Notes under the pieces: generated by a model | Seen by the model: the letters and a program-made list of their open reading frames with translations, nothing else | Databases searched by the model: none | Told to the model about the DNA's origin: nothing | Part shown: piece after piece, positions 10,506 through 56,400 of the stretch | How the letters are laid out: each line of letters starts with the position of its first letter | Numbering within the stretch: position 1 is the first letter of the stretch | Origin: a virus | DNA: 64,000 nucleotides | Direction: 5' to 3' (one strand) | IMG/VR virus record: IMGVR_UViG_3300025687_000040 | Position numbers and translations under genes: made by a program

Positions 10506-10522
10506 GATATTTTGGCTATAAT

Positions 10523-10556
10523 AGAGAGGCGGGTTTTGGCCCGCCTCTCTTTTTTT
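10523..10556 (+). terminator. Rho-independent terminator after the capsid gene
   Basis: GAGAGGCGGGTTTTGGCCCGCCTCTC forms a hairpin followed by TTTTTTTATT. Confidence 0.75.
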
Positions 10557-10586
10557 ATTGAAAATAGTCTCTTTAGGAATCACAGA

Positions 10587-41985: not shown

Positions 41986-43244
41986 ACTATTGTGAATGCG
42001 AGCTTGCTGGGTACTGCAAGAAACATGGAGTAGAAAAAACCCAGAGAGACATTGAAATTTGTAAAGGAATTAACATTTCAGAAGCGAAGTGCGATTCCTA
42101 TAGGCGAGCATGGGAAAACGGCACTACTTACGCTCAGAGGCTTGCAAGGAAGAATGACTCAAATGAAGTCGTTGTGACATCACATTCAGGAATGATAAGT
42201 GAGAGGCCGCAGATTGTCCGACAATCAAAGTCCTTGCTTCTCAGTATTACGGAAAATGATATCCCCTGTGAATTTCGTGGCGAGAAACTGAGAGATCATA
42301 AGTGTGCCCCATGCAGGGGTTCGGTCGCAATCCCTATTTTTGAATGCAAGCACCCAGAAGTAAAAAAGAAAGAATGCTCGCTGGCGATGCACGTTGCCGG
42401 AGTTGCTAAGTGTTCGGCGTGTGAGTTTGCCGGAGAAGACGCATTTGAAGACTTCATTAAATCAAGAAAATCTGTTTCATTCACAACGTCTGATTCTAAG
42501 TCTTTACTAGAATCAAAGAATGCTGACTTAGAACCTCAGCCATTCATAGGACCAGTAAAAAGAATCCTGTTATTTTATCTATGGGAAAATTGTGACATTC
42601 AACGACACAAAGAACTCTTGAAAAAGTATGCAACTGGGTATGACCGAAAGATCATGTGTTGTGCCTACAACACTGAAGGTAACCATCCGGATGTTAAGAG
42701 TATATTTGATGATGGCTGGGAGCATATCAGTGTCAAGAATGATCCTAAGTTAAGGGAAGTTGTTGGATACAGGAAAATGTTTCCAATGGTTGCCAATGAA
42801 GGCGAAAACACAATTATTACGTGTGCTCATGCGAAAGGTGCTCAACAACATACAAGAGAAAGTGAAGTTATTAACTGGTGGACGGAAGCAATGTATGCCA
42901 CCGTTGTTGGTAACCCTCAAGAAATTGAAGATGCTCTTTCTAAAGGCTATATAGTTGCAGGAAGCTTCAGAAGACTTGGTAAACACTTTGGATGTAAATA
43001 TCGCTACCACTACTCAGGCACGTTCTATTCATTAAGGGCTTCTGAGTTTTTTAAGCATGGTGTTCCAAAAATTAAAGACAGGTACTGGGGGACTGAATCT
43101 CTTCCAGGAGATGTGATTCCACTTAACAAATCATATTGTATTTTTGGTGACAATGTTGGTGAATTATACAAACTAGAAAATCAACCGCGACAAGAATTTC
43201 AACAATGGGAGAAAAGACATGACGCTATACTTACCAAAAACTGA
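41982..43244 (+). CDS. Cys-rich protein of unknown function
   Basis: The probable start is MNYCECELAGYCKKHG (ATG at 41982; the track start 41952 is upstream). The N-terminus has multiple CxxC or CxC pairs (CECELAGYC, CAPCRG, CSACEF). Confidence 0.35.
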   Translation: MNYCECELAGYCKKHGVEKTQRDIEICKGINISEAKCDSYRRAWENGTTYAQRLARKNDSNEVVVTSHSGMISERPQIVRQSKSLLLSITENDIPCEFRGEKLRDHKCAPCRGSVAIPIFECKHPEVKKKECSLAMHVAGVAKCSACEFAGEDAFEDFIKSRKSVSFTTSDSKSLLESKNADLEPQPFIGPVKRILLFYLWENCDIQRHKELLKKYATGYDRKIMCCAYNTEGNHPDVKSIFDDGWEHISVKNDPKLREVVGYRKMFPMVANEGENTIITCAHAKGAQQHTRESEVINWWTEAMYATVVGNPQEIEDALSKGYIVAGSFRRLGKHFGCKYRYHYSGTFYSLRASEFFKHGVPKIKDRYWGTESLPGDVIPLNKSYCIFGDNVGELYKLENQPRQEFQQWEKRHDAILTKN

Positions 43245-44232
43245 TACCTTGTTTATCCATATTCCAAAAACAGGTGGACACTTTGTCGAAAAAGTTCTTC
43301 AGACTTTTAATATTCAATATGAAAATCCTGAACCAAACAAAAAAGTTTGCCAAAAACATTCTCCAATTAAATACTTCAAACCTGTAAGTAATTCGTTCTG
43401 TTTTCGCAGAGAAGTGCTTTCTTGGATGAAATCTTATTGGAGATTTCACCTGATCACAAACAATGATCAGTCTATTTGGGATGAAGAGACTAAATACCTG
43501 AATCGTGAATTTATTAGTCACCCTCTACCTGGTTGGGATAAATTTTCTTCTGATGAGTCTGTTGAAAATGTGAAAAAGTATTTGAGACTTATGGAGAAAG
43601 ATTGCAGCACTATTCTACCTTTCGGTTCTCTCAGAGAGTCATTAACTGATCATCTGGAGAGTCTTGGATATGATGTTGACAGAGATATTATCAACAATCT
43701 TCCAAGAGAAAATCCAACACTTCTAAGAATCGAACTTGGTGGTGGGACCAAACCAGAACAGTCAAAAAGATTTGTTAATCTTGACCAAGTTCCTGAAGCA
43801 CATCTTCAAGTAAACCTTGACGAATTCCCTTACCCATTGCCAGACAACTCAGTTAACGAGGTTTACTCAAGTCACTGCCTTGAACATCTTAAACACCCTT
43901 ACAGTGTTTTCAGAGAGATATGCAGAATCTGTGCAGTCGGAACTTTTGTTGTAATTAAAGTCCCTCACCCATTTAATCCAATGGCAATGCATCCAGGACA
44001 CGAGCATGTAATTTCTCAAGATATGATTGACCATTTTTCTTACTTTCCTGAAATCAATCTCTGGGAAGAAAAGAAACTCGTATATAAAAACACCATTCTT
44101 AGACCAACAATTCATTTTGCAGAGGCCCGTAGACTATCTACGTTTTCTAAATTAACAGATGATCAAATCATGAAGTTTGTCCCAGGAACTTGCCATGAGT
44201 CTGAATTTCAGTTTACTGTAGAGATCGCGTAA
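43219..44232 (+). CDS. Fusion of a sulfotransferase-like N-domain and a class I SAM-dependent methyltransferase
   Basis: The N-terminal FIHIPKTGG resembles the sulfotransferase 5'-PSB motif. The C-terminal RIELGGGTKPE...VNLDQ...DNSVNEVYSSHCLEHL matches a Methyltransf_11-like fold. Confidence 0.45.
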   Translation: MTLYLPKTDTLFIHIPKTGGHFVEKVLQTFNIQYENPEPNKKVCQKHSPIKYFKPVSNSFCFRREVLSWMKSYWRFHLITNNDQSIWDEETKYLNREFISHPLPGWDKFSSDESVENVKKYLRLMEKDCSTILPFGSLRESLTDHLESLGYDVDRDIINNLPRENPTLLRIELGGGTKPEQSKRFVNLDQVPEAHLQVNLDEFPYPLPDNSVNEVYSSHCLEHLKHPYSVFREICRICAVGTFVVIKVPHPFNPMAMHPGHEHVISQDMIDHFSYFPEINLWEEKKLVYKNTILRPTIHFAEARRLSTFSKLTDDQIMKFVPGTCHESEFQFTVEIA

Positions 44233-44293: not shown

Positions 44294-44836
44294 ATGAATA
44301 AGCAATTGATTGTTAAAGAATTCCCTGAATGGCTGCCGTTAATCAGATCAGCGACGGCGGTTATGCCGTCTTCTAACTGGCCTCACTGGCATAAATATTC
44401 AGATGAAAACTCTACAAAGTATGCTACAAAAGATGCTTCTAGACTTTCAGAACCTTGCAAGATTCTTTTGCAGTTAATGTGTTTAAACGTTGAGATAACA
44501 GATACTCTGTTTCCTGATCTTGACTTGTATGGAGCAGGACTACACTGGATTCCTGAGAGGGGAAACTTAGGACATCACAAAGACGGAGAGGTCCATCCAA
44601 TGACGGGATGGTATAGAAAAGCAAGCTCCATTCTATTTTTGTCAGACTGTTTAGGAGGAGAATTGGTTATTGATGGGCATGAGCCAATCCAGCCAAAACC
44701 TGGAAGACTAGTAACCTTTGAAGCAAACTTAGGTCATAAAGTTAATCAGGTAATCCAAGGGAACCGATATACGTTATCTTTGTTCTGGTGGTCATGGAGT
44801 GGTTCTGGAGTAACTGAAAAAGCAACATTTACCTAA
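44294..44836 (+). CDS. 2OG-Fe(II) oxygenase superfamily protein
   Basis: An HxD...H triad is present (GHHKDGE ... NLGHKV), together with a jelly-roll-like GGELVIDG segment. Confidence 0.5.
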   Translation: MNKQLIVKEFPEWLPLIRSATAVMPSSNWPHWHKYSDENSTKYATKDASRLSEPCKILLQLMCLNVEITDTLFPDLDLYGAGLHWIPERGNLGHHKDGEVHPMTGWYRKASSILFLSDCLGGELVIDGHEPIQPKPGRLVTFEANLGHKVNQVIQGNRYTLSLFWWSWSGSGVTEKATFT

Positions 44837-44887: not shown

Positions 44888-45328
44888 ATGGAAGAAAAAG
44901 AGACCGGATATAAGTGCCTTTTAGAGGGTCTCGACCCTAGACAAAACTTTATTGATTGTTATCAAAAACAAGTAAAGACAGAAAAAGAAGTAGAACAGTC
45001 TCAAATTATAGAAGTAAAGAAATGTATGTTTTGTAATCAGAATGGATGCTCTGGCGAATGCCGAAATAAACAATCTCTGCCTTCTAAAATAGAAATGGCA
45101 AAAAACTTGGCTAGTGCCGCCAAAGATCATGTGAAGACGGGAATGGCTCAAGCTAAAGATGAGCTTCAACAACAGAGGTTAGATATCTGTAAAGGATGTG
45201 AATTCTATATCCCAGAACAGGATAGGTGCGGAAAATGTGGCTGCTATCTAAAAAGTAAATCCGCTTGGAAATCTGCGAAATGTCCAGTAGGAAAGTGGCT
45301 TATTCTATTTTGTCTGTTGCTTATCTAA
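44888..45328 (+). CDS. Small Cys-rich protein with a C-terminal TM anchor
   Basis: CMFCNQNGCSGEC ... CKGCEF...CGKCGC...CPVGKW, then WLILFCLLLI. Confidence 0.3.
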   Translation: MEEKETGYKCLLEGLDPRQNFIDCYQKQVKTEKEVEQSQIIEVKKCMFCNQNGCSGECRNKQSLPSKIEMAKNLASAAKDHVKTGMAQAKDELQQQRLDICKGCEFYIPEQDRCGKCGCYLKSKSAWKSAKCPVGKWLILFCLLLI

Positions 45329-45338
45329 CTATAACTCA

Positions 45339-45698
45339 TTATTTTTGTTCATGCAAAATCATCTCTGTTAGCTCTAAATTACTGGTAATAAATCCAACAC
45401 GTCCATCACTATTAAGAATAGTGTAAGTCCAGAATTCTTTAGTCTCCGGGTATTGCTTTTTAGCGACCTCATGCATACTAATAATAAGTTCTTCAAAATC
45501 TTCTTCAGAACGGTACATTAAAGGAACAATGAAAGTCTCATTGTCTTTTGTGTGTTTTGGTGTAAATTTTAGAAAATCATACCAATTTACAATCTTAGTT
45601 TCCAGTGTTGATCTGTGGAACTTTACTCCACTACCAAACATTACTGTTGCTGCGGCAAAAGCGGAAGCGGCTGTGTGTAGAAAAGTTCGTCTAAGCAT
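45339..45698 (-). CDS. Small Tat-signal (RRTFL) secreted protein
   Basis: The N-terminus MLRRTFLHTAASAFAAATVMFGSG fits a twin-arginine signal consensus. Confidence 0.45.
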   Translation of the reverse strand: MLRRTFLHTAASAFAAATVMFGSGVKFHRSTLETKIVNWYDFLKFTPKHTKDNETFIVPLMYRSEEDFEELIISMHEVAKKQYPETKEFWTYTILNSDGRVGFITSNLELTEMILHEQK

Positions 45699-45888
45699 TG
45701 GAGATCCTTAAAACTATAGTTATGATTATTGCCGTCGAGACAATGTGGTAAAGACTATACCACAAGTATAGTGTATTATTCTTTATAATGTTCGGATATT
45801 TACGGCATTCAAAAAAAATTCCAAAAAATGGTATGAAACTCATATGTCCTTTCTTTTTTATAAGCCATAAATTATCCAATGTCTTATG

Positions 45889-46137
45889 TTAATAGTTTGA
45901 TGTAAAATCTTCAGCTTTATAAAATTCTTCACAAGCACTTTTATGCGGTGGGGGTGTCGCGATCAGCCATCCAATAGGACTAAAAATACAATATTCTACA
46001 TCATAAATTTCATCTTTTATACATTCACTATTGAACATATCTTTTCCATCCACCCATACATCTGTAGATTCTTTTATACATTTTACTTGAGTTCCGGGTT
46101 TAAATGGCGGTTCTATTTCTTTATGGCCGTTTGTCAT
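45889..46137 (-). CDS. Hypothetical small protein
   Basis: Called from the ORF only. Confidence 0.2.
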   Translation of the reverse strand: MTNGHKEIEPPFKPGTQVKCIKESTDVWVDGKDMFNSECIKDEIYDVEYCIFSPIGWLIATPPPHKSACEEFYKAEDFTSNY

Positions 46138-46232
46138 ATACCCTCACATCCAACATTTTTTAGTACTTCAGCCACACATTGCCTGTATGTTTTTATAGCA
46201 CTAGGTGTCCATACGGAATAGCTCAGATCACT

Positions 46233-47435
46233 TTAAGAAAGTATGTTTCTAGCGTCATCTTTAAAAACGTGACGTGGTCTATCGCTATTATCCTTGATTG
46301 TCAAGCGTTTGTCAAGCCCCATATGGTCACCAATAGTCCATGCTAGGTCCGATGGTGAATAGGTGTCCCCCATACTGACCAACCCATGATCATCAGTCTG
46401 TCCAATCACACCTTTACCATGCTTCCCAAATAACACAAGAGTGTTAGTGTTTGGATTATGGTCTCTTCCGCCATTCATATTGATTTTTGTCCGAGAAAAT
46501 TCGCTCCAGAGAATTACCAATGTATTGTCTAACAATCCTCTTTGTTTAAGATCCGTGATAAGTGTGGAGATACCATTATCTAATCCGGGAGCGTTTTGAG
46601 CAAATGCGGCATCTATATTGCTGTGATTATCCCAGCCCGCATTACTATTCAAGCTAACATACTTAGTGCCACGCTCAACCAATCGTCTAGCAAGAAGAAG
46701 ATCTTTACCAAATCGAGAATTGCCGTAAATTGAGTTAGGCTCTTGACTTAGGTCGAAAGCTTCGGCTGCATCTCCCCTAATAATGTTGACAGCCATATTT
46801 TTTAAATCTGTCCAGTCAGTGCCCAGTCCGGGGAGATTAGCTGTGTCATCTATGATTGACATCATTTTTAGGCGAGTATCAAATCGTTTCGAGTCTACTC
46901 CGTTATGAAGACTCATATTTTTAACGCCCTCGTCATCGGCGTCATATCCATTATAGCGGATACCTAGCCAGGCAGCATCATCACCATCAATGTTTCTTAG
47001 CTTTACATAGTGTGGAATACCTGACTTTGGGCTATTTGGCAGATATTCTCTAGCTATAAGAGACCCGAAGCTGGGTTCACGTTGTCCAGCGTTAGGAACG
47101 TGAAAATGAGAGGTCATGTGAGCCATTGTTGCGGTTTGATGGTTAGCGTCTTTAAATTTCATTGAACGAACAATAGTCATGTTGTCGCCCAGCGTTGCCA
47201 TTTGTTTAAAGTCACCACCCAATAAAAAACCACCGGCGTCAACAGACCCTCTAGAAGATCTGAATTCGGGTGGTGCATCTGGAATAGGATTAATGAAATC
47301 AATGGCAGAAATTCCGCCCTGAAGATGGATAGAGATAACGGACTTTTCATTATCTGGTTTTGCCGCCATTGATGGGGTGCAATATGTCGCTCCTGCACCA
47401 AGAGCTACTGATTTAAGAAATGTTCTACGTAACAT
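46233..47435 (-). CDS. DUF1501-family (sulfatase/alkaline-phosphatase superfamily) protein with a Tat signal
   Basis: MLRRTFLKSVALGAGA is Tat-like. The C-terminal LVILWSEFSRT...NGGRDHNP fits DUF1501 conserved blocks. Confidence 0.6.
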   Translation of the reverse strand: MLRRTFLKSVALGAGATYCTPSMAAKPDNEKSVISIHLQGGISAIDFINPIPDAPPEFRSSRGSVDAGGFLLGGDFKQMATLGDNMTIVRSMKFKDANHQTATMAHMTSHFHVPNAGQREPSFGSLIAREYLPNSPKSGIPHYVKLRNIDGDDAAWLGIRYNGYDADDEGVKNMSLHNGVDSKRFDTRLKMMSIIDDTANLPGLGTDWTDLKNMAVNIIRGDAAEAFDLSQEPNSIYGNSRFGKDLLLARRLVERGTKYVSLNSNAGWDNHSNIDAAFAQNAPGLDNGISTLITDLKQRGLLDNTLVILWSEFSRTKINMNGGRDHNPNTNTLVLFGKHGKGVIGQTDDHGLVSMGDTYSPSDLAWTIGDHMGLDKRLTIKDNSDRPRHVFKDDARNILS

Positions 47436-47466
47436 ATTTATGCTTTCTGTTTAAAAGTTTCTAAAA

Positions 47467-47700
47467 TTAGACGTTTCGTCTCCCCATATCCACTTTTATT
47501 ACCGCTCTTAGTCTGTCTTCTAACATACCTTGTAACCCACCAATTCCAGCGGTAGTATATGAACAGTTTTTACATGCAGCAAAAAAGCCCGACATATCAG
47601 TGCGGATAATTACTGAAAAATATTCATGCTGACACTGAGGACATTTTACCTTGTCTGTTAGATGTCCCTGTCCTTCCATAAGTCTATCAAATTCAAACAT
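47467..47700 (-). CDS. Small zinc-ribbon protein
   Basis: CPQCQH...CKNCSY. Confidence 0.3.
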   Translation of the reverse strand: MFEFDRLMEGQGHLTDKVKCPQCQHEYFSVIIRTDMSGFFAACKNCSYTTAGIGGLQGMLEDRLRAVIKVDMGRRNV

Positions 47701-48142
47701 TACGCCTCTCTATATCATCTTCAGAGCTATTTCCAAGCCACGTTTCAACAACAACTACTGGCTCAGTTCCTTCGTTGTGGGGTCGGTGCCAAGTTTCTTT
47801 TGGGATGATGTAATAAGATAAATCTCTAGTCTGATCTAAACTTTCGTCAGTTAATAAAACTGTATAACGCTTTCCGCCAAAATGTTTTTCGTGTTGTAAT
47901 TCAACCATTAAGGTGCCTTTAATCACTAGCCAGTGCTCGTCCCGCTTAAAATGTCTCTGGTCCGACAGTGATTTTCCGGGCAAAATAGTTAGTTCTTTAA
48001 CAGTATACCCATCACCTTTATGTAGTACTTTATAGTGACCCCAAGTTCTTTCTACCACATCTCTCTTTTGGTTGAGTTTGTAGTCAAGTGCTGCAATTCT
48101 GTCTTCATAATCCATTATTGTTTGATATTCGTCTGGGTGCAT
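47693..48142 (-). CDS. Cupin-domain protein, ManC/phosphomannose-isomerase type II C-terminal-like
   Basis: RTWGHYKVL...LTILPGKSLSDQRHFKRDEHWLVIKGT matches the RPWGxY...PG..lSlQ.H..R.EhW.vv.G cupin signature. Confidence 0.55.
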   Translation of the reverse strand: MHPDEYQTIMDYEDRIAALDYKLNQKRDVVERTWGHYKVLHKGDGYTVKELTILPGKSLSDQRHFKRDEHWLVIKGTLMVELQHEKHFGGKRYTVLLTDESLDQTRDLSYYIIPKETWHRPHNEGTEPVVVVETWLGNSSEDDIERRNV

Positions 48143-48370
48143 TTATTTATCCTAAGTCCATTAGTGGGTAGTCTGGGAATAGTAGTAAAAGCACAGTAAT
48201 AAATTACGCATGATATCCCCTTTTAAGAAAGTCTTCAAACAATAACAATGTGATAGTATAAGGACATGAATTAGGTAATTCCCCAAAAAATGTTTTGTAT
48301 CGCCTCATATAGTCTTCTTCATCTATTCTACGACATAGTAAGCTATGAAGAGTATCAGAAATAGCAATAT

Positions 48371-48559
48371 TCATTTATACTGAGTCTTTCTTGTATTTTT
48401 CCAACACTTGTCTCGATGACGGAATAGATCATCATAAGCATCTGGTAATTGGCGGGAACTTCTTTTGGCTCTCACCCTATATTTCTTATTGTTGGAACAC
48501 CTTTTACCGTTTGCTCTTTTTTCCTGGGTCGTCTTTGGAAATCTTAAAAAATGGTACAT
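48371..48559 (-). CDS. Small highly basic protein (possible nucleic-acid binding)
   Basis: A 62-aa ORF rich in R and K. Coding status is uncertain. Confidence 0.2.
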   Translation of the reverse strand: MYHFLRFPKTTQEKRANGKRCSNNKKYRVRAKRSSRQLPDAYDDLFRHRDKCWKNTRKTQYK

Positions 48560-48961
48560 CTTTATCTCCTAAGTGCGGAATTGCACTAGAAGACGTTAGC
48601 GAATGTTTTCATTATTCTTCCTTTTTTTAGAGAAAAATGCCAGCTTGGGTAAGAAGGTGCTGGCGAACCCCCGCCTGCTTACGCAGACAACGCATAATTA
48701 CGAGTTGCAATTATTATTTAGTCGATTTTTTAACTGGCCGTTCGACAAACCAGTACATGCAGCTATTAACTTATACAACCAGTCGATTCTATTTTACCCC
48801 CGCCAGAAACACACTCTGTCGCCGTTTTTGCCAGGCTGGTAACGACCAAGACCTTAAAGAGTGTGCTTTTGGTGGAGGTAGCGGGGTTCTGCCCCCCGCG
48901 TCCTGTTTTGCTAATTTAATAACTTCTACATGCTTATCCAGTTTTAAGGTCTGGCAACCAG

Positions 48962-49032
48962 TAGGCAATGAAGGAATCGAACCTTCTCTTGTGGTATGTA
49001 AAACCACCGTTCTACCATTAAACTAATCGCCT
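48962..49032 (-). tRNA. tRNA-Val (anticodon TAC)
   Basis: The reverse complement folds as AGGCGAT-TA-GTTT/AATGGTA/GAAC-G-GTGGT/TTTACAT/ACCAC-AAGA-GAAGG/TTCGATT/CCTTC-ATTGCCT-A. All four arms form cloverleaf stems. Confidence 0.7.
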
Positions 49033-49144
49033 TTAAAGTGCTGGTTACGAATCCAGCGTAACGCTTTCGGGGTTACCGCTCAGGTTATCACCACCATAAG
49101 GTGTCCGATCCCGACAACTATTTAACAGCCAGTTGCCAACTTAG

Positions 49145-49218
49145 TAGTCCTGGAGAGATTCGAACTCCCAATCGGTGGTGTAGAAAACCACTGCATTATC
49201 CAGTTATGCTACAAGACC
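49145..49218 (-). tRNA. tRNA-Arg (anticodon TCT)
   Basis: The reverse complement folds as GGTCTTG-TA-GCAT/AACTGGATA/ATGC-A-GTGGT/TTTCTAC/ACCAC-CGATT-GGGAG/TTCGAAT/CTCTC-CAGGACT-A. Anticodon and D stems are perfect; the acceptor stem has two G-U pairs. Confidence 0.65.
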
Positions 49219-49379
49219 ATCCACCTAATTGCCAAAATCTTAAACTTATTACACCTTTTTCTTTTAAAAACCCCTTTTATACAGAATCATATGACTCATA
49301 TGACTAGCAATACGGCAACGGATTATATTAGTCTTAAGACTAACTTGCTATACATTAACCTGCGGGGTTTAAACTTTAC

Positions 49380-49715
49380 TTATTCTTCCTGGCCTGTATC
49401 TTTATTCCAAACACGCCATCCGTTATTGCCCCAATACTCATCCGTAAGTTTTCCCTCTGCATCCTTCTTCTTTTTCTGGAAATACATTGTATTCCCCTGT
49501 TTATGAAGGCTGAAAGGCTTTTTAGCCCGACATTTTGGATTTAGACATTGCTTTTCATAATACTTATCTCCGTTTACTTCACGAACTACATACGTAGTAT
49601 GCTCATGTCCACATTTTCCGCAGACTTCATTTGTAAAAATTTCATCTGCCGCCGCTAAAGCCTGAAAAGTTTCAATGTGACTATCTTTTGGGTTTACTGT
49701 AAAAACTACGTGCAT
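49380..49715 (-). CDS. Zinc-ribbon protein
   Basis: CGKCGH ... CLNPKC. Confidence 0.3.
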   Translation of the reverse strand: MHVVFTVNPKDSHIETFQALAAADEIFTNEVCGKCGHEHTTYVVREVNGDKYYEKQCLNPKCRAKKPFSLHKQGNTMYFQKKKKDAEGKLTDEYWGNNGWRVWNKDTGQEE

Positions 49716-49716
49716 A

Positions 49717-50532
49717 TTAATCTCTCCAATTTGGGTTATAACCTTTAATAAAACTGTCTATTTCTTCTTTTCCAGCAGAAACTTTAGCTAAGAAATCAAT
49801 CAATTCCTTAGCTTCAACTTTTGTCATATTTTCTATAGCATCGAATCTCCCCTGCCCTTGATTAATTAGTTTCATTACATCCACATCAAGATCTTTACAT
49901 CTTTTGTCTAAAAACCTTATTTGAGAAGAAGAAATAGGATCAGGTCTAGAAGCACCACTCCCAGCTTTATTCTTTTTCTCTAATGTTCTATGATTATTCT
50001 CTACATGGCTGATTTCTTCAAAAGAACACTTCTTAAGTTTTAAAGCTTTTCTAAGTGCTCTGGCTTCTGCTCTGGTCGAAGCTGTAGATGGAGAATAAAC
50101 CAAAAAGTCAGGATCTTGATTACCGGAATAACAATCAGCTACTTCAGCATAAGTCCTCTCCGTTTTATCAAACCATAAGAAAGTAATAGAATGCACAACG
50201 GTAGAACGCTGAGTCTCATCGCGTTGAGCCACAGGATAAACTTCAGTCGGACAACTCTTAATAATATCACCTAGAAGTAATTCAGCTACACGTCGTAGCC
50301 CATTTACTCTTGGATATCCATCAGTCAATTCTGATTCATCAAATTGGGACATAACAAAAGCGTCCCAATGAGTAGACAAATATGCGGCCTTTTTATCTTT
50401 ATTACTTAGATCATCAAAAGAATACGTATCGTTATCTTCAACAGAAGCTATAAAGCTTTCTAGTGATGATTTCATCTCTTTTTCGATAGTATTATCAATA
50501 CTAAATCCTATACTTGCTTTAGCCAAAATCAA
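49717..50532 (-). CDS. Hypothetical protein (the C-terminus may be a SAP/Rho-N-like DNA-binding motif)
   Basis: A 271-aa ORF. SQIRFLDKRCKDLDVDVMKLINQGQG is a weak helix-turn-helix-like region. Confidence 0.25.
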   Translation of the reverse strand: MILAKASIGFSIDNTIEKEMKSSLESFIASVEDNDTYSFDDLSNKDKKAAYLSTHWDAFVMSQFDESELTDGYPRVNGLRRVAELLLGDIIKSCPTEVYPVAQRDETQRSTVVHSITFLWFDKTERTYAEVADCYSGNQDPDFLVYSPSTASTRAEARALRKALKLKKCSFEEISHVENNHRTLEKKNKAGSGASRPDPISSSQIRFLDKRCKDLDVDVMKLINQGQGRFDAIENMTKVEAKELIDFLAKVSAGKEEIDSFIKGYNPNWRD

Positions 50533-51311
50533 ACCTCGATTTCTATAAGTCTATTTGCGGGGTCGGGAAATTTCTGGTGAACTTTTTGAAGTTCCTCCAA
50601 TACTCTCTCAGACACTAATCTAAGTTTGTGCTGGGAGAGTGTTTTCGTCATCTGTTTAACTCTAATTAATACATATCCGGCTGACATCAAAAGACCTGCT
50701 TTTCTATTGTCAGCTTTCTGGTGCTTTTGTAATTTTTGCTCCCCCCAAATTGGTAAAAAGTGAGAAGGTCCGTCAATTTCAATCGCTGTCTTCAAGTCAG
50801 CCACAAAAAGATCGATTTCCAAGGTTTGTCCAGGAAGTAAATTTTTCTCGTGAAATCTAACAGACCAACCCGCTTCTGTCAAGGTTTTTCTGAGGTATCT
50901 TTCAGTTTTGCTGCCATCTACAGCCGCTTCGCGGACGGCAGCGGCGGCTAATGAGCGGAGATTTTGCTTCTCTTCTTCACTCATTGCTGCCCATTGGGCC
51001 TTGCTGATCTCTGACAGTCTCGCACGTTCTTCATCCGATACTTCAGACCACGCCTTAGCCCTGCCCTCAGAAACGGCGATCTTGTGTGCCTCAGTAAGAG
51101 TCGCTCCTTTTTCTATGGGGACTTTACTCCTTCCTTTTTTAATAGCAATTTTCTGTGCCGTCTCATAGTCACGAGCCTCAATGTCAAGATACTTTAAAGC
51201 CCTTAAAATTTTCGTAGAATAAGTATTTAGATGTTCAGCAATCTCATAACTACTGCATCCTTTTTTATACATACTACGAATAATTTGTTCATGTTCAATT
51301 GCAAAGTTCAT
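50529..51311 (-). CDS. Homing-endonuclease-like protein with HTH, NUMOD3-like motifs and a Vsr/DUF559-type nuclease core
   Basis: An N-terminal HTH (GCSSYEIAEHLNTYSTKILRALK) and NUMOD3-like repeats (AQKIAIKKGRSKVP, AHKIAVSEGRAKAWSE). The C-terminal EIDLFVADLKTAIEIDGPSHF...NRKAGLLMSAGYVLIRV matches DUF559 or Vsr. Confidence 0.55.
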   Translation of the reverse strand: MNFAIEHEQIIRSMYKKGCSSYEIAEHLNTYSTKILRALKYLDIEARDYETAQKIAIKKGRSKVPIEKGATLTEAHKIAVSEGRAKAWSEVSDEERARLSEISKAQWAAMSEEEKQNLRSLAAAAVREAAVDGSKTERYLRKTLTEAGWSVRFHEKNLLPGQTLEIDLFVADLKTAIEIDGPSHFLPIWGEQKLQKHQKADNRKAGLLMSAGYVLIRVKQMTKTLSQHKLRLVSERVLEELQKVHQKFPDPANRLIEIEV

Positions 51312-51753
51312 TTAACTTCTCCAGATTAAAATCTTCTTGTATTGCATCCACCTCAATATTAAAGTTATTTTTCAAAATGTCTGCTTGTAATTGAGATCTT
51401 ACTACTATATGTAAGTCTTTATTGTTTAGGATTTTTTGAACCCCGTAAAAATTAAAAGTCTTATCAACCCACTCAAAGTTCCATAAATAGAACACTTTCT
51501 TCGAATTAGAAGAAGACTTATTCAAGGCATCCGCTGTATTTAAAGTCGTGGCTACTAAAACCCCGTTCTCAAAATGAGAAATATCACTGATCCCCATATA
51601 TCCAAAAAGTGATGGTATAATTTTATTACTCATGTTACAAACAAAAGCACATACATTGTCTGTTTCTACTGCTACATATTCATTCATAGCTTTCATTATG
51701 TAATAATTTTTATCACTCTTTAAAAAATCATCAAACAAAACACCTATTTTCAT
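51295..51753 (-). CDS. Hypothetical protein (glycan cluster)
   Basis: An ORF in an operon-like arrangement with the sugar genes. Confidence 0.25.
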   Translation of the reverse strand: MKIGVLFDDFLKSDKNYYIMKAMNEYVAVETDNVCAFVCNMSNKIIPSLFGYMGISDISHFENGVLVATTLNTADALNKSSSNSKKVFYLWNFEWVDKTFNFYGVQKILNNKDLHIVVRSQLQADILKNNFNIEVDAIQEDFNLEKLNELCN

Positions 51754-52193
51754 TGTACATATCCTGAAATAAAATCACTGCAAAGACCTAAATAATTACT
51801 CCAGTCAGAAATAATATTCTTTTCTGGATTCATTACTATACATTTAGGTATAAGGGAATTATTAAAAGACAGTACAAAATTCTTATTAGTTAAGACGATA
51901 TCATCTGACTCTCTCCAGAAGCAATGATATCCGTTTTCTAGTAAAAACAGAAGGGCAGGAAGATTCCTAGCCTGAATCAACAATTTGTCTTTTTCGAATC
52001 TATCAAGTATAATACCATTGGCGGGAAAATCGTTTCCTGTAACAAGCCTACCTTTGATAACCCATAAGTCAGTTTTAATACAGTATCCATCCTGTACTGC
52101 TTGAAGTAAGTACTCTACGGTATTTTCTTTTTTAGGATCTCTTCCAGAGATATTTCCCTTATTTGAAATATAGAGCATTGAGTACCGACTCAC
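51750..52193 (-). CDS. Hypothetical protein (glycan cluster)
   Basis: Its ends overlap the neighbouring genes (ATGA-type junctions). Confidence 0.25.
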   Translation of the reverse strand: MSRYSMLYISNKGNISGRDPKKENTVEYLLQAVQDGYCIKTDLWVIKGRLVTGNDFPANGIILDRFEKDKLLIQARNLPALLFLLENGYHCFWRESDDIVLTNKNFVLSFNNSLIPKCIVMNPEKNIISDWSNYLGLCSDFISGYVQ

Positions 52194-52938
52194 CTTTTTT
52201 GCCTATTCTTTGTGATGCCTGCTCTAGCCCTATTTGCTTAAAGATGTCGGCCCATATACTAAATGGGCTTCTATCTTTTAATAGCCTATTTCTTAGTTCA
52301 GTTGCATCTTGATAATTTCCATTTAATACAGCATCTACCTTCTCGTAAAAGTCTTCTTCATCGTAGAAAACCTGCTCAGAAAGTAATCCTAATCCATAGT
52401 CAGAATCTGTGATAACATTTCCACCTGACTCCAACGCCATTAAAACAGACTGTTTATTTAAACATATACTAACTTTTGCAGAAGCATAGGCATTAGAAAT
52501 TTGCTTACCTCTAATTACTCCACAATAGTTATATGTATTTATTGACTGATTGCCAAAGAATCTTACCTTGTAATTCATATTCATATATCTGTCGATATAT
52601 TTGACTTTATTCAAATCTTGATCAACAGCAACAATATCGCAAACAAGTTCTTTTAATTTTTGTCCTTGTCCTAGTAAAAGACAACTATCTTGTATTTGAT
52701 AGGCACCAGGAACCTGATTAAATGATAGACAAAAATCTTCACCTTTTTGAGTATCTGTTAATTCAATACGAAGACAGTCTCTTACTCCAGCTAATTGCTG
52801 TTTAAAATGCGTATCATATATCATAACGTCACATTCGGAAAATTCTCCATTTACTATGGCGACTTGATGTCCATCTTCTTTTAGATATTTACAGAACTGT
52901 ATGAATCTTTGATTTTGAGATACTATATTAAATTTCAT
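52159..52938 (-). CDS. Hypothetical protein, possible glycosyltransferase-like
   Basis: Called from the ORF in glycan context. No motif was verified. Confidence 0.25.
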   Translation of the reverse strand: MKFNIVSQNQRFIQFCKYLKEDGHQVAIVNGEFSECDVMIYDTHFKQQLAGVRDCLRIELTDTQKGEDFCLSFNQVPGAYQIQDSCLLLGQGQKLKELVCDIVAVDQDLNKVKYIDRYMNMNYKVRFFGNQSINTYNYCGVIRGKQISNAYASAKVSICLNKQSVLMALESGGNVITDSDYGLGLLSEQVFYDEEDFYEKVDAVLNGNYQDATELRNRLLKDRSPFSIWADIFKQIGLEQASQRIGKKGESVLNALYFK

Positions 52939-53633
52939 TTAGTGTCTTTCATTGAATCTATTTCTTTTATATTACCTCTAATTGTCGTAAAAGGCACTAT
53001 ATCAGATCCTCTATTTATTAAATAATTTAGAAACTCAAAAGTAGTAAGATTTTTGTCTACAGAGCTTAGTATTGATCTTAATTCATAGAAAAAATTATTA
53101 GGGAAAAATACTATTTGGCACCACTTATCGTTAAGCCCGTAAGAGAAATTACAGACTTTTCCTTGCTGAATTGCTACTCCGACTTCGTCTTTATTGATTT
53201 TATTCTTATTATCTATAGGCACAGAAATTTTAATGTAATCTATAGGTTTGATAAAAGAAGGTGAAAATACTATATCTCCATGTATAAAAAATACATTACC
53301 TTCTAGTGAGGCATTTAAACCAACTCTCATGCTTTCTACAATATTTGTAGAATCGTATCTTAAGTTTTCAACAGACCTTATATTCCTTGTTTCATTGATA
53401 ACTTTGTCTGATAGATATCCAGTGACATTAATAATATCTACTTTATCTCCATATACTTTATTAATAGTATCTATTTGGGAATCAATTATTCTTTTCCCAC
53501 GATAATTCATTAGACATTTATTTCCATAATTTTTAGTTCTACGTCCACAACCTGCATTAAGTAGAATAAAAGTATTTAATGGATTGCTGTCTTTTATTTT
53601 TTTTATAAACCTAATATTCTTATCGTTTGACAT
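52935..53633 (-). CDS. Sugar nucleotidyltransferase (MobA/IspD/CMP-sugar synthetase-like)
   Basis: The N-terminal FILLNAGCGRR matches the NTP-transferase G-x-G-x-R motif. Confidence 0.45.
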   Translation of the reverse strand: MSNDKNIRFIKKIKDSNPLNTFILLNAGCGRRTKNYGNKCLMNYRGKRIIDSQIDTINKVYGDKVDIINVTGYLSDKVINETRNIRSVENLRYDSTNIVESMRVGLNASLEGNVFFIHGDIVFSPSFIKPIDYIKISVPIDNKNKINKDEVGVAIQQGKVCNFSYGLNDKWCQIVFFPNNFFYELRSILSSVDKNLTTFEFLNYLINRGSDIVPFTTIRGNIKEIDSMKDTK

Positions 53634-54099
53634 TATACAAACTTATTGGTATATACTTAATAATCCCTTTTGTTTTTGAAATATCATATAGATCATCTAT
53701 ATTAGGTTCTAATCTTCTACAAAAGCAAATAGGCATACTTTGTATCATGACTACACCATCAACACAGAAATCGCTGTAAGTAACAGATACATTGTCGTCT
53801 TTATCCATTGGTTCTACCAAAGCATTTACCATACCTTGAATAGGAACGCAATTTTTTGGGATAAACAAAAACGCATGACATTGATTATTTATAGCCTCTT
53901 GGATAGCTAAACTTTTTACATTTAACCTATCTTCAAATCCTACATTTATCACACCTTTTTCAGCAAATTTATTACCTAGAGAAGTATCAAATAAACTAAT
54001 AAATACTTCATCCGATTTTTTAGGATTTAGAATGTTAAGTAGTTCGTCTACGTCTTCATCTTCTGACAACTCTTTAGATACCGACAGCTTCATTAACAT
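53620..54099 (-). CDS. Hypothetical protein (glycan cluster)
   Basis: Called from the ORF. Confidence 0.25.
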   Translation of the reverse strand: MLMKLSVSKELSEDEDVDELLNILNPKKSDEVFISLFDTSLGNKFAEKGVINVGFEDRLNVKSLAIQEAINNQCHAFLFIPKNCVPIQGMVNALVEPMDKDDNVSVTYSDFCVDGVVMIQSMPICFCRRLEPNIDDLYDISKTKGIIKYIPISLYNVKR

Positions 54100-54814
54100 C
54101 CTCCCAGCTATGAACCATTTTTACTGTTTTTTGTTCTTCGCACATTTGAGATAACTTTTCTTGATAAGATACAACCTTATCTCCTTTGAGGTATTGAAAT
54201 AATGAGTTATTAATGACCATAGGAGAATCTAAAATTAGTCCAAGTCTTTTCATTTTTTCGTTTACAAAACAATTAATAGACTCTAGATGTTTCTGTTCTA
54301 CATTCTCATTAGAACCTAAAATAATTGAGTATCCATTTTTTACTTTTAGAAATGCATCCCTAATCTGTTCTTCTCTATTTTCGCTAAAACTTCTTAATAC
54401 ATAAAAATTATGATATTTGTCAGAAAAAACTTTCAATTTTTGAAAGTTATCTAATGTCACGACGCAAATACTGTAAACCTTCTCTCCTTTTGTAAAAGAG
54501 AGGACGTTATTAATAATGCCTTCTGTCTTTTCTAGATCATTATCCAGTATAATGAATGAAATGGGGAGCTTATTCTTTTCTAGAGACTGCTCTTTAGTTA
54601 GATTCTCACTGTTTTTATGAGGGCAAATTCTGTCAAATTGATAATGACCGTCAACTATTTGACAAATATTTGATTCTAACTTTATATTATCTAGAATTCC
54701 AATAGAACAATCTGTCCCATTTTCAAAAGAGCAGCCATTACAAGACATCCCAAAACTTTTCATAGCCAACTTTCTGTTTTTAAATTTATTAATCCTAAAC
54801 GGGCTTGTTCCCAA
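54074..54814 (-). CDS. Putative family 2 glycosyltransferase with an N-terminal Cys cluster
   Basis: ISFIILDNDLEKTEGIINNVLSF...ICVVTLDN resembles the GT-A N-terminal pattern. MSCNGCSF...CSIG...DRICPH is a Cys cluster. Confidence 0.4.
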   Translation of the reverse strand: MGTSPFRINKFKNRKLAMKSFGMSCNGCSFENGTDCSIGILDNIKLESNICQIVDGHYQFDRICPHKNSENLTKEQSLEKNKLPISFIILDNDLEKTEGIINNVLSFTKGEKVYSICVVTLDNFQKLKVFSDKYHNFYVLRSFSENREEQIRDAFLKVKNGYSIILGSNENVEQKHLESINCFVNEKMKRLGLILDSPMVINNSLFQYLKGDKVVSYQEKLSQMCEEQKTVKMVHSWEDVNEAVGI

Positions 54815-56400
54815 AAATTTTTATTTTTGGCCTTTTCAGTAAACATCCCCACAATTTGATCACGACTTAAAGGTCTATACTCTTCTCTATTAAAAATAGA
54901 AAGTTCACCATAGAAAAATCCGCCCGGATTATTACGGAACATACCAAAGTTCAAATCTCTAAGAAGTTTATTAAAAGCGTATGTATTTACTAATGATGGT
55001 TCGTTCAGAGTCACATTAATCAAAAAATCAAGAAAGTCCTTATTATTCATTTCTTTATTAGGCAAAGCGGTAGGATTCGCCATCATAGGTTCTACTGTCC
55101 AGTCAGAGAAATCTAAAAGGTCTATTTCTTCTTCCCAGACTTTTGCCGTTTTGTCCCAGCCATAGTGCTTCTCGAAAGATTCCCTAGTTTTTAAGCTATC
55201 TTGAATACGTAGAGACTGAGGCTTATTTAATAGCTCTTTCCATATTTCTACAGTATGATCTAAGTCAAGTAAAGCCCTATCACATCCCGTCTCCATTTCT
55301 AAATGTTTAGATCTAACTTTGATAGGATGTCCATTAAGTTTTCTGATCTCGGTCTCCATTGCCGAATAGTCTGTTCCCATGACTGGAATTCCGCAGGCTG
55401 CTGCCTCTACGACGGGAATACCAAATCCTTCAGATGATGCTGGCTGGATATAAACATCAAAGATATTGTAAATATCAGATAATACACTTCTGCTAACACC
55501 AGAAGATACGCTACTTAATTTAGATGAGAACTGTCCACAAGTAGGACAAGGCTGGACCGTATCTGCAAAATGACTATACGACACATTATTACAATTTCCA
55601 CAAACATACGTAAATAATACCCTTGATATAATCTCACTATCAATTAGGTACTTAGGAATATCCCAACCATTATCAGGGTAAGAAGTATGGCAGTAAAGAT
55701 AGGTATTTTTTTCACCTGTCTCTTTTAAGTACTTACCGAAAGCTTCAAATAATTCGGGGAATAATTTCCGACGTTGATTCCTCATGACTGTGCCAATAAT
55801 TTTCCAATCCGGGTTAATACCCATTTTGACTTTATGGGCATTCTTATCGAGCACTGGTTTGAATTCTTCAGAAGCAGATGGTGTGGCGGAACGTTTAACG
55901 TTCATATTAGGATTTGCATTTTTTAGAACATCTACAGCCCAATCAGAATATGTTAGAACAGTGTCAGCACTAGAAAATGTATCAATCCATTCTTCATTTT
56001 GAGGGCTGGCATCTACAGTAGGCATATAGATCCAGTTAAAGTACTTTCTTAAAGGTGAATGCTGAATATAAGAATCCATCCACCAATCTCTTATTGAACA
56101 AATATGATCAGGTTTGAAATCTATACAAACTCTTTCGAAACGCCATTTTCCGAACTGATTAGCTCCATCGCTCTTATAAGCTTCTTGCTGTTCCTGTGAA
56201 CTACCATTTGGCATATTCGGGTAGTTCTTCCAGGGGATAGAACTCCTCTCTTTATGATCCTCAGTACCATAAATAGAAAATTCTGCAATGTCATATTTTC
56301 CAGTTGCTTGCAACCTTGATATAACTTCTCGACTATATGTAGCATAGCCAGTATTTAAGTAACTAGCTTCGGAGACAAATAAAATTCTTTTTCTACGCAT
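54760..56400 (-). CDS. GT-B fold glycosyltransferase (GT4-like) with an inserted zinc ribbon
   Basis: GFGIPVVEAAACGIPVMGTDYSAMETE matches the GT4 E-x7-E region. CGNCNN...CPTCGQ forms the zinc ribbon. Confidence 0.55.
   Translation of the reverse strand: MRRKRILFVSEASYLNTGYATYSREVISRLQATGKYDIAEFSIYGTEDHKERSSIPWKNYPNMPNGSSQEQQEAYKSDGANQFGKWRFERVCIDFKPDHICSIRDWWMDSYIQHSPLRKYFNWIYMPTVDASPQNEEWIDTFSSADTVLTYSDWAVDVLKNANPNMNVKRSATPSASEEFKPVLDKNAHKVKMGINPDWKIIGTVMRNQRRKLFPELFEAFGKYLKETGEKNTYLYCHTSYPDNGWDIPKYLIDSEIISRVLFTYVCGNCNNVSYSHFADTVQPCPTCGQFSSKLSSVSSGVSRSVLSDIYNIFDVYIQPASSEGFGIPVVEAAACGIPVMGTDYSAMETEIRKLNGHPIKVRSKHLEMETGCDRALLDLDHTVEIWKELLNKPQSLRIQDSLKTRESFEKHYGWDKTAKVWEEEIDLLDFSDWTVEPMMANPTALPNKEMNNKDFLDFLINVTLNEPSLVNTYAFNKLLRDLNFGMFRNNPGGFFYGELSIFNREEYRPLSRDQIVGMFTEKAKNKNFWEQARLGLINLKTESWL

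Follow-up and report, generated by a model that had tools for sequence, protein, structure and literature searches.

DUF1501 proteins (PF07394) are found in Planctomycetota, Verrucomicrobiota, and other bacteria; twin-arginine motifs are a recognized feature of the family, and its function is known in no organism (PMC3542564). The phage homolog described here resembles the cellular proteins in its full-length profile match, its invariant residues, and its twin-arginine N-terminus. It is, however, only 33–37% identical to the nearest named cellular proteins, which are planctomycetal, and falls in a separate, apparently phage-only clade. It is also shorter (~400 aa versus 430–450 aa in the closest cellular homologs listed), has lost H104, and carries GRDHN for GRDHW and SEFSRT for SEFGRT. 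Unlike the cellular genes it is solitary, and no PSCyt/PSD1 or DUF1800 partner was detected in any phage locus. Nucleotide pyrophosphatase/phosphodiesterases (NPP) and the alkaline phosphatases PafA and PhoK are metal-dependent enzymes acting outside the cytoplasm, but they are only 12–15% identical to the phage protein and give no sequence-profile match. Type I (S1) formylglycine sulfatases share with it the stretch LDxxxxxLIxDLxxxGLxDNT followed by a short β-strand, but the phage protein lacks the (C/S)xPxR motif and a Sulfatase Pfam match and has SEFSRT in place of SDHG.

Glycan-modifying gene sets of phages include O-antigen seroconversion cassettes and mycobacteriophage virion glycosylation operons. 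As in the locus examined here, phage glycosyltransferases are grouped there with sugar-nucleotide enzymes, but the present set lies in a replication block, is paired with Tat-signal proteins, and has no detectable GtrA/B-type flippase or bactoprenol glucosyltransferase. Cyanophages carry the phosphate-acquisition genes phoA and pstS. Like these genes, and like PhoX and PhoD, which are Tat-exported (PMC11098088), the DUF1501 gene is predicted to provide a periplasm-bound enzyme for the phage-infected cell, but the protein families differ.

Gene Content of the Phage Locus

The window, the whole 64,000-nucleotide stretch analyzed (IMG/VR record IMGVR_UViG_3300025687_000040), comes from an uncultured large marine phage. 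It encodes a terminase with an intein, a tape-measure protein, tail fibers, DnaE, and a sigma factor; the phage has a G+C content of 36% and an alpha-type, two-piece tmRNA. One leftward block runs from DnaE through the sigma factor to p119, a 119-aa orphan protein (Table 1), and carries two gene sets that are conserved in this phage subgroup. Set A, presumably cytoplasmic, comprises a GT4 glycosyltransferase, a MobA-like nucleotidyltransferase, and five orphan ORFs. Set B, predicted to be exported, consists of the solitary DUF1501 protein and p119, each with a twin-arginine signal. The initial annotation had treated the region as a gene set. The genes are real, but the tmRNA, two tRNAs, a homing-endonuclease-like gene, and two unknown genes divide it into two sub-blocks, and the GT4 gene lies ~7 kb upstream of the DUF1501 gene both here and in L012, a related phage. 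Sugar genes together with two Tat-signal proteins form a moderately unusual phage accessory set, because one of the two, an enzyme, comes from the unstudied family DUF1501. "Accessory" is nonetheless too weak a term, because synteny with L012 extends over the entire block, at 50–86% identity, and the GT4 (81%) is about as conserved as DnaE (85%).

Table 1. Features of the window, in order of position
Feature	Position	Strand	Basis or remark
gmd (GDP-mannose 4,6-dehydratase), C-terminal end, cut by window edge	2–331	+	GDP_Man_Dehyd PF16363, 2.7e-33
337-aa protein, C-terminal class-I methyltransferase domain	43219–44232	+	Methyltransf_11, 5.4e-6
p119, 119 aa, twin-arginine N-terminus	45339–45698	-	Last gene of minus-strand block
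82-aa ORF between DUF1501 and p119	45889–46137	-	No family match
DUF1501 protein, 400 aa	46233–47435	-	PF07394, E=2e-62, 212 bits vs cut-off 27
Cys-rich ORF of 77 aa, zinc-ribbon-like, immediately upstream of DUF1501	47467–47700	-	Weak Zn_ribbon matches below cut-off
Stand-alone PMI-type cupin	47693–48142	-	MannoseP_isomer PF01050, 2.3e-21; Cupin_2, 3.9e-7
Two-piece (permuted) tmRNA	48675–48955	-	Rfam alpha_tmRNA and tmRNA_permuted, each 69.7 bits
tRNA-Val(tac)	48961–49032	-	67.6 bits
tRNA-Arg(tct)	49144–49218	-	61.2 bits
111-aa Cys-rich ORF, 271-aa ORF, 260-aa homing-endonuclease-like protein	49380–51311	-	None linked to glycans
Of these, the homing-endonuclease-like protein	50529–51311	-	HNH/homing endonuclease PHROGs 559 and 9084
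Three overlapping ORFs, 152, 147, and 259 aa	51295–52938	-	Downstream of nucleotidyltransferase
MobA-like nucleotidyltransferase	52935–53633	-	NTP_transf_3 PF12804, 9.7e-8
Two orphan ORFs, 159 aa (53620–54099) and 246 aa (54074–54814)	53620–54814	-	No significant Pfam, NCBIfam, or PHROG match
GT4-type (GT-B) glycosyltransferase, 546 aa	54760–56400	-	Glycos_transf_1 PF00534, 4.1e-11; Glyco_trans_1_4 PF13692, 1.7e-8

A DUF1501 Protein in a Large-Phage Clade

Profile searches confirmed the proposed DUF1501 membership. Its Tat-type signal reads MLRRTFLK and then SVALGAGATYCTPSMA; the likely site of cleavage precedes AKP. Its AlphaFold2 (AF2) model is confident and has the alkaline-phosphatase-superfamily fold, and we take the protein to be a metalloenzyme of that superfamily. 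At this level the earlier sulfatase-superfamily label holds, but the mature protein lacks the (C/S)xPxR formylglycine motif and did not match the Sulfatase Pfam family. Family profile searches with PhoA, PhoD, PhoX, and PafA were equally negative, and the top structural matches of the model were phosphodiesterases and phosphatases, ahead of glycan-active enzymes by a small margin. Among homologs outside the clade (mostly cellular), 66 alignment columns are at least 85% conserved, and the phage protein keeps 56 of them, including every conserved Asp, Glu, and Arg and every conserved His except H104. Any substrate named for it is a guess, because the family's function is known in no organism (PMC3542564).

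The gene belongs to a clade found solely in metagenomes (36–99% identity) and monophyletic in a neighbor-joining tree (P0001–P0048). All 10 distinct contexts sampled from the clade are large-phage contexts, with marker genes for RNR, ThyX, ligase, RecA, DnaB, rIIB, or sigma factor. We detected no relatives in 50,697 GenBank phage records, only one DUF1501-bearing contig in IMG/VR, and no close relatives in GTDB species genomes; a literature search found no paper on a phage DUF1501 protein. In the contexts sampled the clade is phage-only, and Tat-signal cargo of this kind is uncommon in phages, in agreement with the initial annotation.

Sugar Genes and Their Recurrence in Related Phages

Several of the sugar-gene assignments made from the sequence were upheld by family profiles, namely gmd at the left edge, the nucleotidyltransferase, and the GT4-like glycosyltransferase (Table 1), the last of which also matches phrog_2170 (1.5e-29). 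The GT4 gene comes immediately after that of the phage sigma factor and has no homolog in GenBank phages. The nucleotidyltransferase has weak GlmU and MocA N-terminal matches and is probably a sugar-phosphate nucleotidyltransferase. The gene called a ManC-type cupin does encode a PMI-type cupin, but it matches only positions 335–460 of TIGR01479 (GMP_PMI), the C-terminal domain of ManC, and has no guanylyltransferase domain; in L001, L004, L009, and L012 it likewise lies upstream of DUF1501. Of the Pfam families proposed for checking, DUF1501, Glycos_transf_1, and Cupin_2 were recovered, and the nucleotidyltransferase matched NTP_transf_3, but no window ORF matched a GT2 profile. The "GT2-like" call likely arose from the two orphan ORFs beside the GT4 gene. 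These have only 11 homologous clusters, none with a Pfam domain, and give only far-sub-threshold, chance-level Pfam matches at E≤5; homologs of the 246-aa ORF begin at its Met18, giving 229 aa.

For the plus-strand gene described as sulfotransferase-like, the sole match is Methyltransf_11, confined to the C-terminal half. Its N-terminal 184 aa match no family, it shows no similarity to the sulfotransferase of L003, and it is missing from L001, a 99%-identical relative. Sulfotransferase and sulfatase profiles matched no ORF in the window, and with (C/S)xPxR also absent from the DUF1501 protein the "sulfur" label is not supported for the window. The only profile-backed sulfotransferase is in L003, a 50%-identical relative.

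Glycan genes recur beside DUF1501 in relatives. A GT4 gene is directly upstream in L002; GT2, sulfotransferase, O-methyltransferase, and GT4 genes, in that order, are directly upstream in L003; GT4 and epimerase genes are 1.3 kb downstream in L005; and a TylF-like methyltransferase gene is 0.4 kb downstream in L007. Five of the 10 distinct contexts (L004, L006, L007, L008, and L009) have no glycosyltransferase in the 6–10 kb of flank sampled. The gene order in these relatives, and around a distant p119 relative (below), lends support to a link between the predicted exported proteins and the glycan genes.

Possible Roles of the Gene Sets

The best reading, which we hold tentatively, is that the locus remodels envelope glycan of the host periplasmically during infection. 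Set A, with gmd elsewhere in the genome and the PMI-type cupin, could both provide a mannose-derived or 6-deoxyhexose sugar and transfer it, and would change what the cytoplasm builds. The host Tat translocase would meanwhile move folded DUF1501 and p119 across the inner membrane, and periplasmic DUF1501 would act on an envelope-associated glycan, cleaving or transferring a phospho- or sulfo-ester group. The net result would be a remodeled surface or periplasmic glycan on the infected cell, with a pay-off such as receptor masking, superinfection exclusion, or keeping progeny off debris. Counting against this are the slight structural preference for phosphodiesterases and phosphatases, the five contexts with no nearby glycosyltransferase and the distance of the GT4 gene in the window, the separation of sets A and B, the absence of the cellular partner proteins, the silence of Tat-signal models (below), and a family function known nowhere (PMC3542564).

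The main rival, phosphorus or sulfur scavenging, we regard as unlikely. A periplasmic DUF1501 phospho- or sulfoesterase would break down dissolved organic esters, and the phosphate or sulfate released would supply synthesis of the ~140-kb phage genome, a parallel to cyanophage phoA and pstS; the sugar genes would be unrelated. Consistent with this, the alkaline phosphatases PhoD and PhoX are Tat-exported (PMC11098088), Tara Oceans is among the sources, and DUF1501 lies among RNR, dUTPase, PhoH, dCMP deaminase, and ligase genes in several relatives and is conserved over a wide phage clade, as expected of a generally useful function. However, none of the phosphatase profiles matched, and scavenging explains neither the repeated adjacency to glycosyltransferase, sulfotransferase, methyltransferase, and cupin genes nor the second Tat-signal protein.

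It is improbable that the glycosyltransferase set acts on phage material, through virion glycosylation or DNA hypermodification, with the Tat proteins independent members of the same transcription block. The set does belong to the replication block, where DnaE, an SSB-like gene, and the sigma factor immediately precede it; the GT4 is conserved like DnaE, which fits a gene with a role in virion or DNA biology; and between sets A and B lie three RNA genes and a gene for a homing endonuclease. In L002 and L003, the GT4 adjoining DUF1501 follows a nucleoside deoxyribosyltransferase-like gene, and L003 has a dCMP deaminase gene nearby. Yet DUF1501 directly abuts that GT4, we detected no DNA-glucosyltransferase or base-hydroxymethylase family in the region, and in L011 the gene of a distant p119 relative, P0144, is flanked by sugar-isomerase-type cupin and GT2 genes, with no replication genes near it.

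Twin-Arginine Signals and p119

The two twin-arginine N-termini described in the initial annotation are present. DUF1501 and p119 both begin MLRRTFL; uncharged stretches of 17 and 21 residues and AxA-type sites follow. Among the 185 window ORFs of at least 50 aa, only these two combine MLRRTFL with an uncharged h-region, and in ~190 kb of related phage DNA the signal pattern is confined to their homologs. All 65 aligned DUF1501 sequences (32–96% identity to the window protein) have R3 and R4, and the RR pair can be seen in nearly every one of the first 75 homologs inspected. The two signals use different codons and therefore do not reflect a recent duplication.

In p119, MLRRTFL precedes the h-region TAASAFAAATVMFGSG, a basic VKFHR, and a small α/β domain. 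It belongs to no Pfam, PHROG, NCBIfam, or PADLOC family and has homologs in only 12 clusters among 5.8 billion proteins (56–87% identity), in which MLRRTFL is nearly invariant and the middle of the protein variable. A profile search of 1.84 billion representatives added only P0144, which begins MFSRRGFLG, keeping SRRGFL and the h-region. The AF2 model (pLDDT 84) has residues 2–21 as a single helix and no fold match was found in the PDB.

Low h-region hydrophobicity and a basic c-region favor Tat over Sec; here the h-regions average 1.1–1.75 on the Kyte-Doolittle scale, and the p119 c-region is basic. The Tat-signal profile models TIGR01409 and PF10518-type gave no significant match on either N-terminus, the sole Tat-model match being a nonsignificant one of the Rieske TAT-signal model to p119 (E=0.26). 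Because there are several alternative AxA sites, the point of cleavage is uncertain. The motifs suggest Tat export of both proteins. That the RR N-termini are instead Sec signals or uncleaved anchors, with p119 then an inner-membrane protein such as a lysis or exclusion factor, is very unlikely: the nonsignificant models, the p119 helix, and the uncertain cleavage speak for it, whereas the consensus Z-R-R-x-F-L(-K) is matched exactly, the RR pair is invariant over deep divergence in both families, hydrophobicity and the p119 c-region are of the Tat kind, and twin-arginine motifs are recognized in DUF1501 proteins (PMC3542564).

Other Genes of the Block

The 82-aa ORF between the set B genes was found in L001 but not in L012 or L009, and the 77-aa ORF is 100% identical in L001. 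The 111-aa and 271-aa ORFs match no family; with the homing-endonuclease-like gene, they are syntenic in L012. For the three overlapping ORFs downstream of the nucleotidyltransferase, searches of Pfam, NCBIfam, PHROG, PADLOC, and PDB sequences gave chance-level matches at best (phrog_33447, 8e-4; an HIV RNase H chain, E=0.021); these ORFs are syntenic in L012 at 68–80% identity.

A phage member of the DUF1501 family

The initial annotation of this region had proposed a glycan and sulfur gene set with two twin-arginine (Tat) signal proteins, one of them from the DUF1501 family. That observation is largely real, and the combination of Tat signals with DUF1501 is its most interesting part. The DUF1501 assignment was borne out over the full length of the protein, with residues 31-398 aligning to positions 2-386 of the 390 in PF07394 and scoring 212 bits (cut-off 27; see the table). 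Polar residues invariant for the family are kept (GG, H99, WDxH, D286, SEFxRT, and GRDH in an alignment of 65 proteins), H99, D269, H271, D286, E312, R315, D325, and H326 being individually present, and of the 66 columns conserved among non-clade, mostly cellular, homologs, 56 are also found in the phage clade. Among cell-conserved positions, H104 is lost in the phage protein, W327 is replaced by N, and G314 by S. Judged by its conserved residues, the phage DUF1501 protein is probably an active enzyme.

The AF2 model of the protein is confident (pLDDT 89) and matches the core α/β fold of the alkaline phosphatase superfamily, which is common to NPP, AP, sulfatases, and pEtN transferases. The earlier label of a sulfatase-superfamily protein therefore stands for the fold and fails for sulfatase itself: the (C/S)xPxR formylglycine motif is absent from the sequence, the Sulfatase profile PF00884 gave no match, and PDB-sequence matches were local and marginal (E ≥ 0.16), so that this search found no sequence relative of DUF1501 among solved structures. 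DUF1501 proteins have no reported function, are enriched in PVC bacteria, often carry a twin-arginine motif, and pair with PSCyt/PSD1 (PMC3542564). An adjacent PSCyt/PSD1 or DUF1800 gene is typical of the family rather than defining, and Pfam searches detected none in the window or in the flanks of the phage DUF1501 genes examined. The solitary, compact, and conserved phage form, without the cellular partner genes, suggests an enzyme capable of acting alone, and it offers a small construct for the biochemistry of a very large family that lacks an assigned function.

Features of the window, with strand and supporting matches
Feature	Coordinates	Strand	Evidence or remarks
gmd end	2-331	+	profile search
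Large terminase, 1075 aa	2251-5478	+	interrupted by intein with LAGLIDADG homing endonuclease; LAGLIDADG_3 3.8e-18, Intein_splicing 2.7e-8
Homing-endonuclease-like gene, free-standing	10512-12197	+	DUF7487, DUF559, Vsr matches
Tape-measure protein, 2844 aa	26245-34779	+	PhageMin_Tail 1e-19
Methyltransferase-domain gene	43219-44232	+	Methyltransf_11 in C-terminal half only
2OG-Fe(II) oxygenase	44294-44836	+	after variable spot
DUF6171 protein	44888-45328	+	after 2OG-Fe(II) oxygenase
Cupin-DUF1501-p119 block	45339-48142	-	
p119, 119-aa orphan protein	45339-45698	-	twin-arginine N terminus
DUF1501	46233-47435	-	PF07394, E=2e-62
PMI-type cupin	47693-48142	-	profile search
Two-piece (circularly permuted) alpha-type tmRNA with adjoining tRNA-Val(tac) and tRNA-Arg(tct)	48675-49218	-	tmRNA 69.7 bits
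Homing-endonuclease-like gene, free-standing	50529-51311	-	phrog_559 match
GT block	51295-56400	-	
MobA-like nucleotidyltransferase	52935-53633	-	profile search
GT4 / Glycos_transf_1 (GT-B) glycosyltransferase	54760-56400	-	43.1 bits vs cut-off 26.4; phrog_2170 1.5e-29
DnaE C-terminal fragment, 371 aa	57410-58525	-	HHH_6, phrog_405; same gene in L012

Twin-arginine N termini of DUF1501 and p119

Both DUF1501 and the orphan protein p119 start with MLRRTFL, in which the Tat motif Z-R-R-x-hydrophobic-hydrophobic appears as LRRTFL at residues 2-7. The h-region that the initial annotation had expected downstream, taken here as an uncharged, weakly hydrophobic stretch of at least ~13 residues with an AxA-type cleavage site after it, is present in both: 17 and 21 such residues follow the heptapeptide in the two proteins, with Kyte-Doolittle peaks of 1.1-1.3 and 1.75, and lead to candidate sites SMA↓A in DUF1501 and AFA↓A or AAA↓T in p119, which also has a basic c-region. 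Among the 185 window ORFs of at least 50 aa, only these two show the pattern, and in ~190 kb of related phage DNA it is restricted to DUF1501 and p119 homologs. R3 and R4 are invariant in 65 DUF1501 proteins with 32-96% identity to the window protein, and nearly all DUF1501 homologs among the first 75 inspected show the RR pair. In the p119 family MLRRTFL is nearly invariant, whereas the central part of the sequence is divergent; the sole distant p119 relative found among 1.84 billion representatives begins MFSRRGFLG, followed by an h-region. Because the codons of the two heptapeptides differ, recent duplication of the signals was rejected, and the shared heptapeptide appears to be selected rather than recently copied. 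The Tat-signal profile models TIGR01409 and PF10518 gave no match at the thresholds used; predicted Tat export of both proteins is strongly indicated by the features above. A lipoprotein identity for DUF1501 was also considered and rejected, since its conserved Y-C-(T/S)-P is unlike a lipobox and the Cys is missing in more distant relatives. The p119 model matched no PDB fold (best E=0.065, TM<0.45).

A phage clade of DUF1501 proteins

The closest DUF1501 homologs, P0001-P0048, form a continuous identity series from 99% down to 36%, are all ~400 aa, come only from metagenomes, and constitute one clade in a neighbor-joining tree. All ten distinct contexts sampled from the clade are large-phage contexts, on contigs of up to 175 kb with RNR, ThyX, ligase, dCMP deaminase, RecA, DnaB, rIIB, PhoH, and a sigma factor. 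The remaining matches have 30-38% identity, the named ones being from Planctomycetota (33-37%). Two further homologs, P0054 and P0055, are likewise found in phage-like contexts. P0055 is sister to the phage clade, and P0054, encoded at 6001-7299 of a T4-like phage contig (L010, with gp13, SNF2 helicase, and NUDIX), branches among planctomycetal proteins apart from that clade, and it is therefore probably a second, independent capture of DUF1501 by phages, with Planctomycetota as the suggested source, as far as the tree and gene context indicate.

No DUF1501 relative was detected in GenBank phages, tblastn with DUF1501 or GT4 and megablast with the region finding no match there, and a phage-clade profile scan of GTDB species genomes detected no close relative. 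IMG/VR yielded a single contig with a DUF1501 of this clade, which a second scan returned again. BFVD holds one auto-annotated, very distant DUF1501 from an "uncultured Caudovirales," and a literature search found no paper on a phage DUF1501. The gene set is a phage-specific addition to the accessory envelope or metabolic genes of phages and to the DUF1501 family.

Sugar genes in the window and in relatives

Profile searches confirmed the nucleotidyltransferase, the GT4-like glycosyltransferase, and gmd at the left edge, all proposed initially. The supposed ManC-type cupin was retained in part: it matches a PMI-type cupin profile and covers only positions 335-460 of the 467 in TIGR01479, the guanylyltransferase domain that defines bifunctional GMP/PMI ManC being missing. 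A GT2-like glycosyltransferase was not recovered, as no ORF in 45339-56400 matched PF00535 at E ≤ 5. The two ORFs that probably gave rise to the GT2 call, of 159 aa and 246/229 aa, fall into very small orphan families, homologs of the 246-aa ORF are without a Pfam domain, and Pfam matches of the unknown ORFs at E ≤ 5 were at chance level. PDB-sequence searches with the 147-aa and 259-aa unknowns and the nucleotidyltransferase gave nothing useful. The sulfotransferase-like gene proposed nearby proved to encode a methyltransferase domain only: its product matched none of the sulfotransferase profiles PF00685, PF13469, and PF03567, its N-terminal 184 aa gave no match at E ≤ 5, it has no similarity to a real sulfotransferase from a related phage (L003), and the gene is absent from the ~99% identical relative L001. 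The sulfur part of the gene set is not supported in this window. The methyltransferase-domain gene lies where the structural block ends, in a stretch that varies (41952-44232, +): a Cys-rich protein of 430 aa there has only 78% identity to its counterpart in L001, a relative otherwise 97-100% identical.

The whole order recurs in the syntenic relative L012 with amino-acid identities of 50-86%, reading DnaE, sigma, GT4, 229 aa, 155 aa, nucleotidyltransferase, three unknowns, endonuclease, and then two unknowns, cupin, DUF1501, and p119. Since the order is kept and GT4 (81%) is conserved about as well as DnaE (85%), the gene set is a stable part of this subgroup rather than loose cargo, and the notion of an accessory island is contradicted despite the low G+C (0.31) at 52-54 kb. 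The cupin is upstream of DUF1501 in L001, L004, L009, and L012. Among phages less closely related, GT4 abuts DUF1501 (L002), GT4 and an epimerase lie 1.3 kb from it (L005), and a TylF-like methyltransferase lies 0.4 kb from it (L007). In the 175-kb phage contig L003 (6743-11230), a contiguous same-strand run comprises GT2, sulfotransferase, O-methyltransferase, GT4, and DUF1501, the sulfotransferase (Sulfotransfer_3, 2.4e-8) being the only profile-supported one among the loci examined. The distant p119 relative is flanked by a sugar-isomerase-type cupin and a GT2.

Possible roles of the exported pair

We tentatively favor periplasmic glycan remodeling. In this model DUF1501, folded and loaded with metal, would reach the periplasm through the Tat system of the host, as would p119. 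DUF1501 would act there on an envelope glycan by cleaving off or transferring a phospho- or sulfo-ester group, and the products of the cytoplasmic genes (GT, nucleotidyltransferase, cupin, and gmd) would alter what is synthesized, with receptor masking or superinfection exclusion as plausible pay-offs. The main rival, phosphorus or sulfur scavenging, is somewhat unlikely: the structural match to phosphoesterases is slightly better and Tat-exported PhoX and PhoD provide a precedent (PMC11098088), but scavenging leaves the sugar-gene neighbors and p119 unexplained. A role of the GT set in modifying virions or DNA, with no connection to the exported pair, is in our view unlikely. The neighboring sugar genes in relatives speak for a link between the exported proteins and sugar genes; against such a link, the 6-10 kb of flank sampled contains no glycosyltransferase in five of the ten distinct contexts from the clade. 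That the DUF1501 and p119 N termini are anchors or Sec signals is improbable in view of their conserved arginine pair.

In its broadest form, glycan remodeling would be a trait of an entire lineage of large, uncultured marine phages, which would send a solitary DUF1501 enzyme and its lineage-specific partner p119 into the periplasm through host Tat. Both would there modify an envelope glycan that bears phospho, sulfo, or methyl decorations and is partly built by phage cytoplasmic enzymes. This extended proposal is doubtful; if true, it would offer a first way into the function of DUF1501, a family greatly expanded in Planctomycetota and Verrucomicrobiota, and would define a new class of phage envelope-remodeling module. 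To our knowledge, Tat-routed phage gene products are barely documented, and a lineage that retains two putative Tat proteins points to a periplasmic infection step, one that would escape current phage annotation pipelines. Practical value is limited because the phage is uncultured.

Phage genome and relatives

All 64 kb are phage DNA with a G+C of ~36%. The plus strand from ~1 to 45.3 kb carries packaging and structural genes (terminase, tape-measure protein, and tail-fiber-domain proteins), and the minus strand from 45.3 to 64 kb carries replication and early genes (DnaE fragment, SSB-like protein, and sigma-70 region-2 protein). The length of the tape-measure protein predicts a tail of unusual length. 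Across the region, identity to a 142-kb IMG/VR contig is ~99%, and some homologs originate from Tara Oceans data. Full-length DnaE matches to cultured phages reach at most 25.5% identity, so the host cannot be anchored through a cultured relative. The nearest named cellular DUF1501 is planctomycetal and distant (33-37% identity), and host inference from it was rejected as unreliable, the neighbor-joining tree being midpoint-rooted and its cellular set limited to the top matches of the query.

The first ~36 residues of the DnaE fragment, ending ...DHIFYANGIPTSN↓S, resemble a split-intein C-half; an N-terminal half of DnaE was not detected in the adjoining 5.5 kb, making a trans-spliced split DnaE possible. 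The two homing-endonuclease-like genes and the terminase intein point to heavy colonization by selfish elements. PADLOC found no defense systems. Between the GT block and the cupin-DUF1501-p119 block lie the tmRNA, both tRNAs, one homing-endonuclease-like gene, and two genes of unknown function, which split the gene set in two; a promoter and terminator scan gave no excess over shuffled sequence, so that transcription units were not definable from it. Two-piece tmRNAs have already been reported from marine phages (PMC9004378). We read the tag of this one as ATRNYALSA*, and parts of the tmRNA/tRNA region are conserved in L001, L004, L009, and L012. In L012, a cell-wall hydrolase gene (10931-11377; Hydrolase_2, 3.7e-10) lies just upstream of a tmRNA-like remnant, at a position corresponding approximately to that of the tRNA genes in the window.
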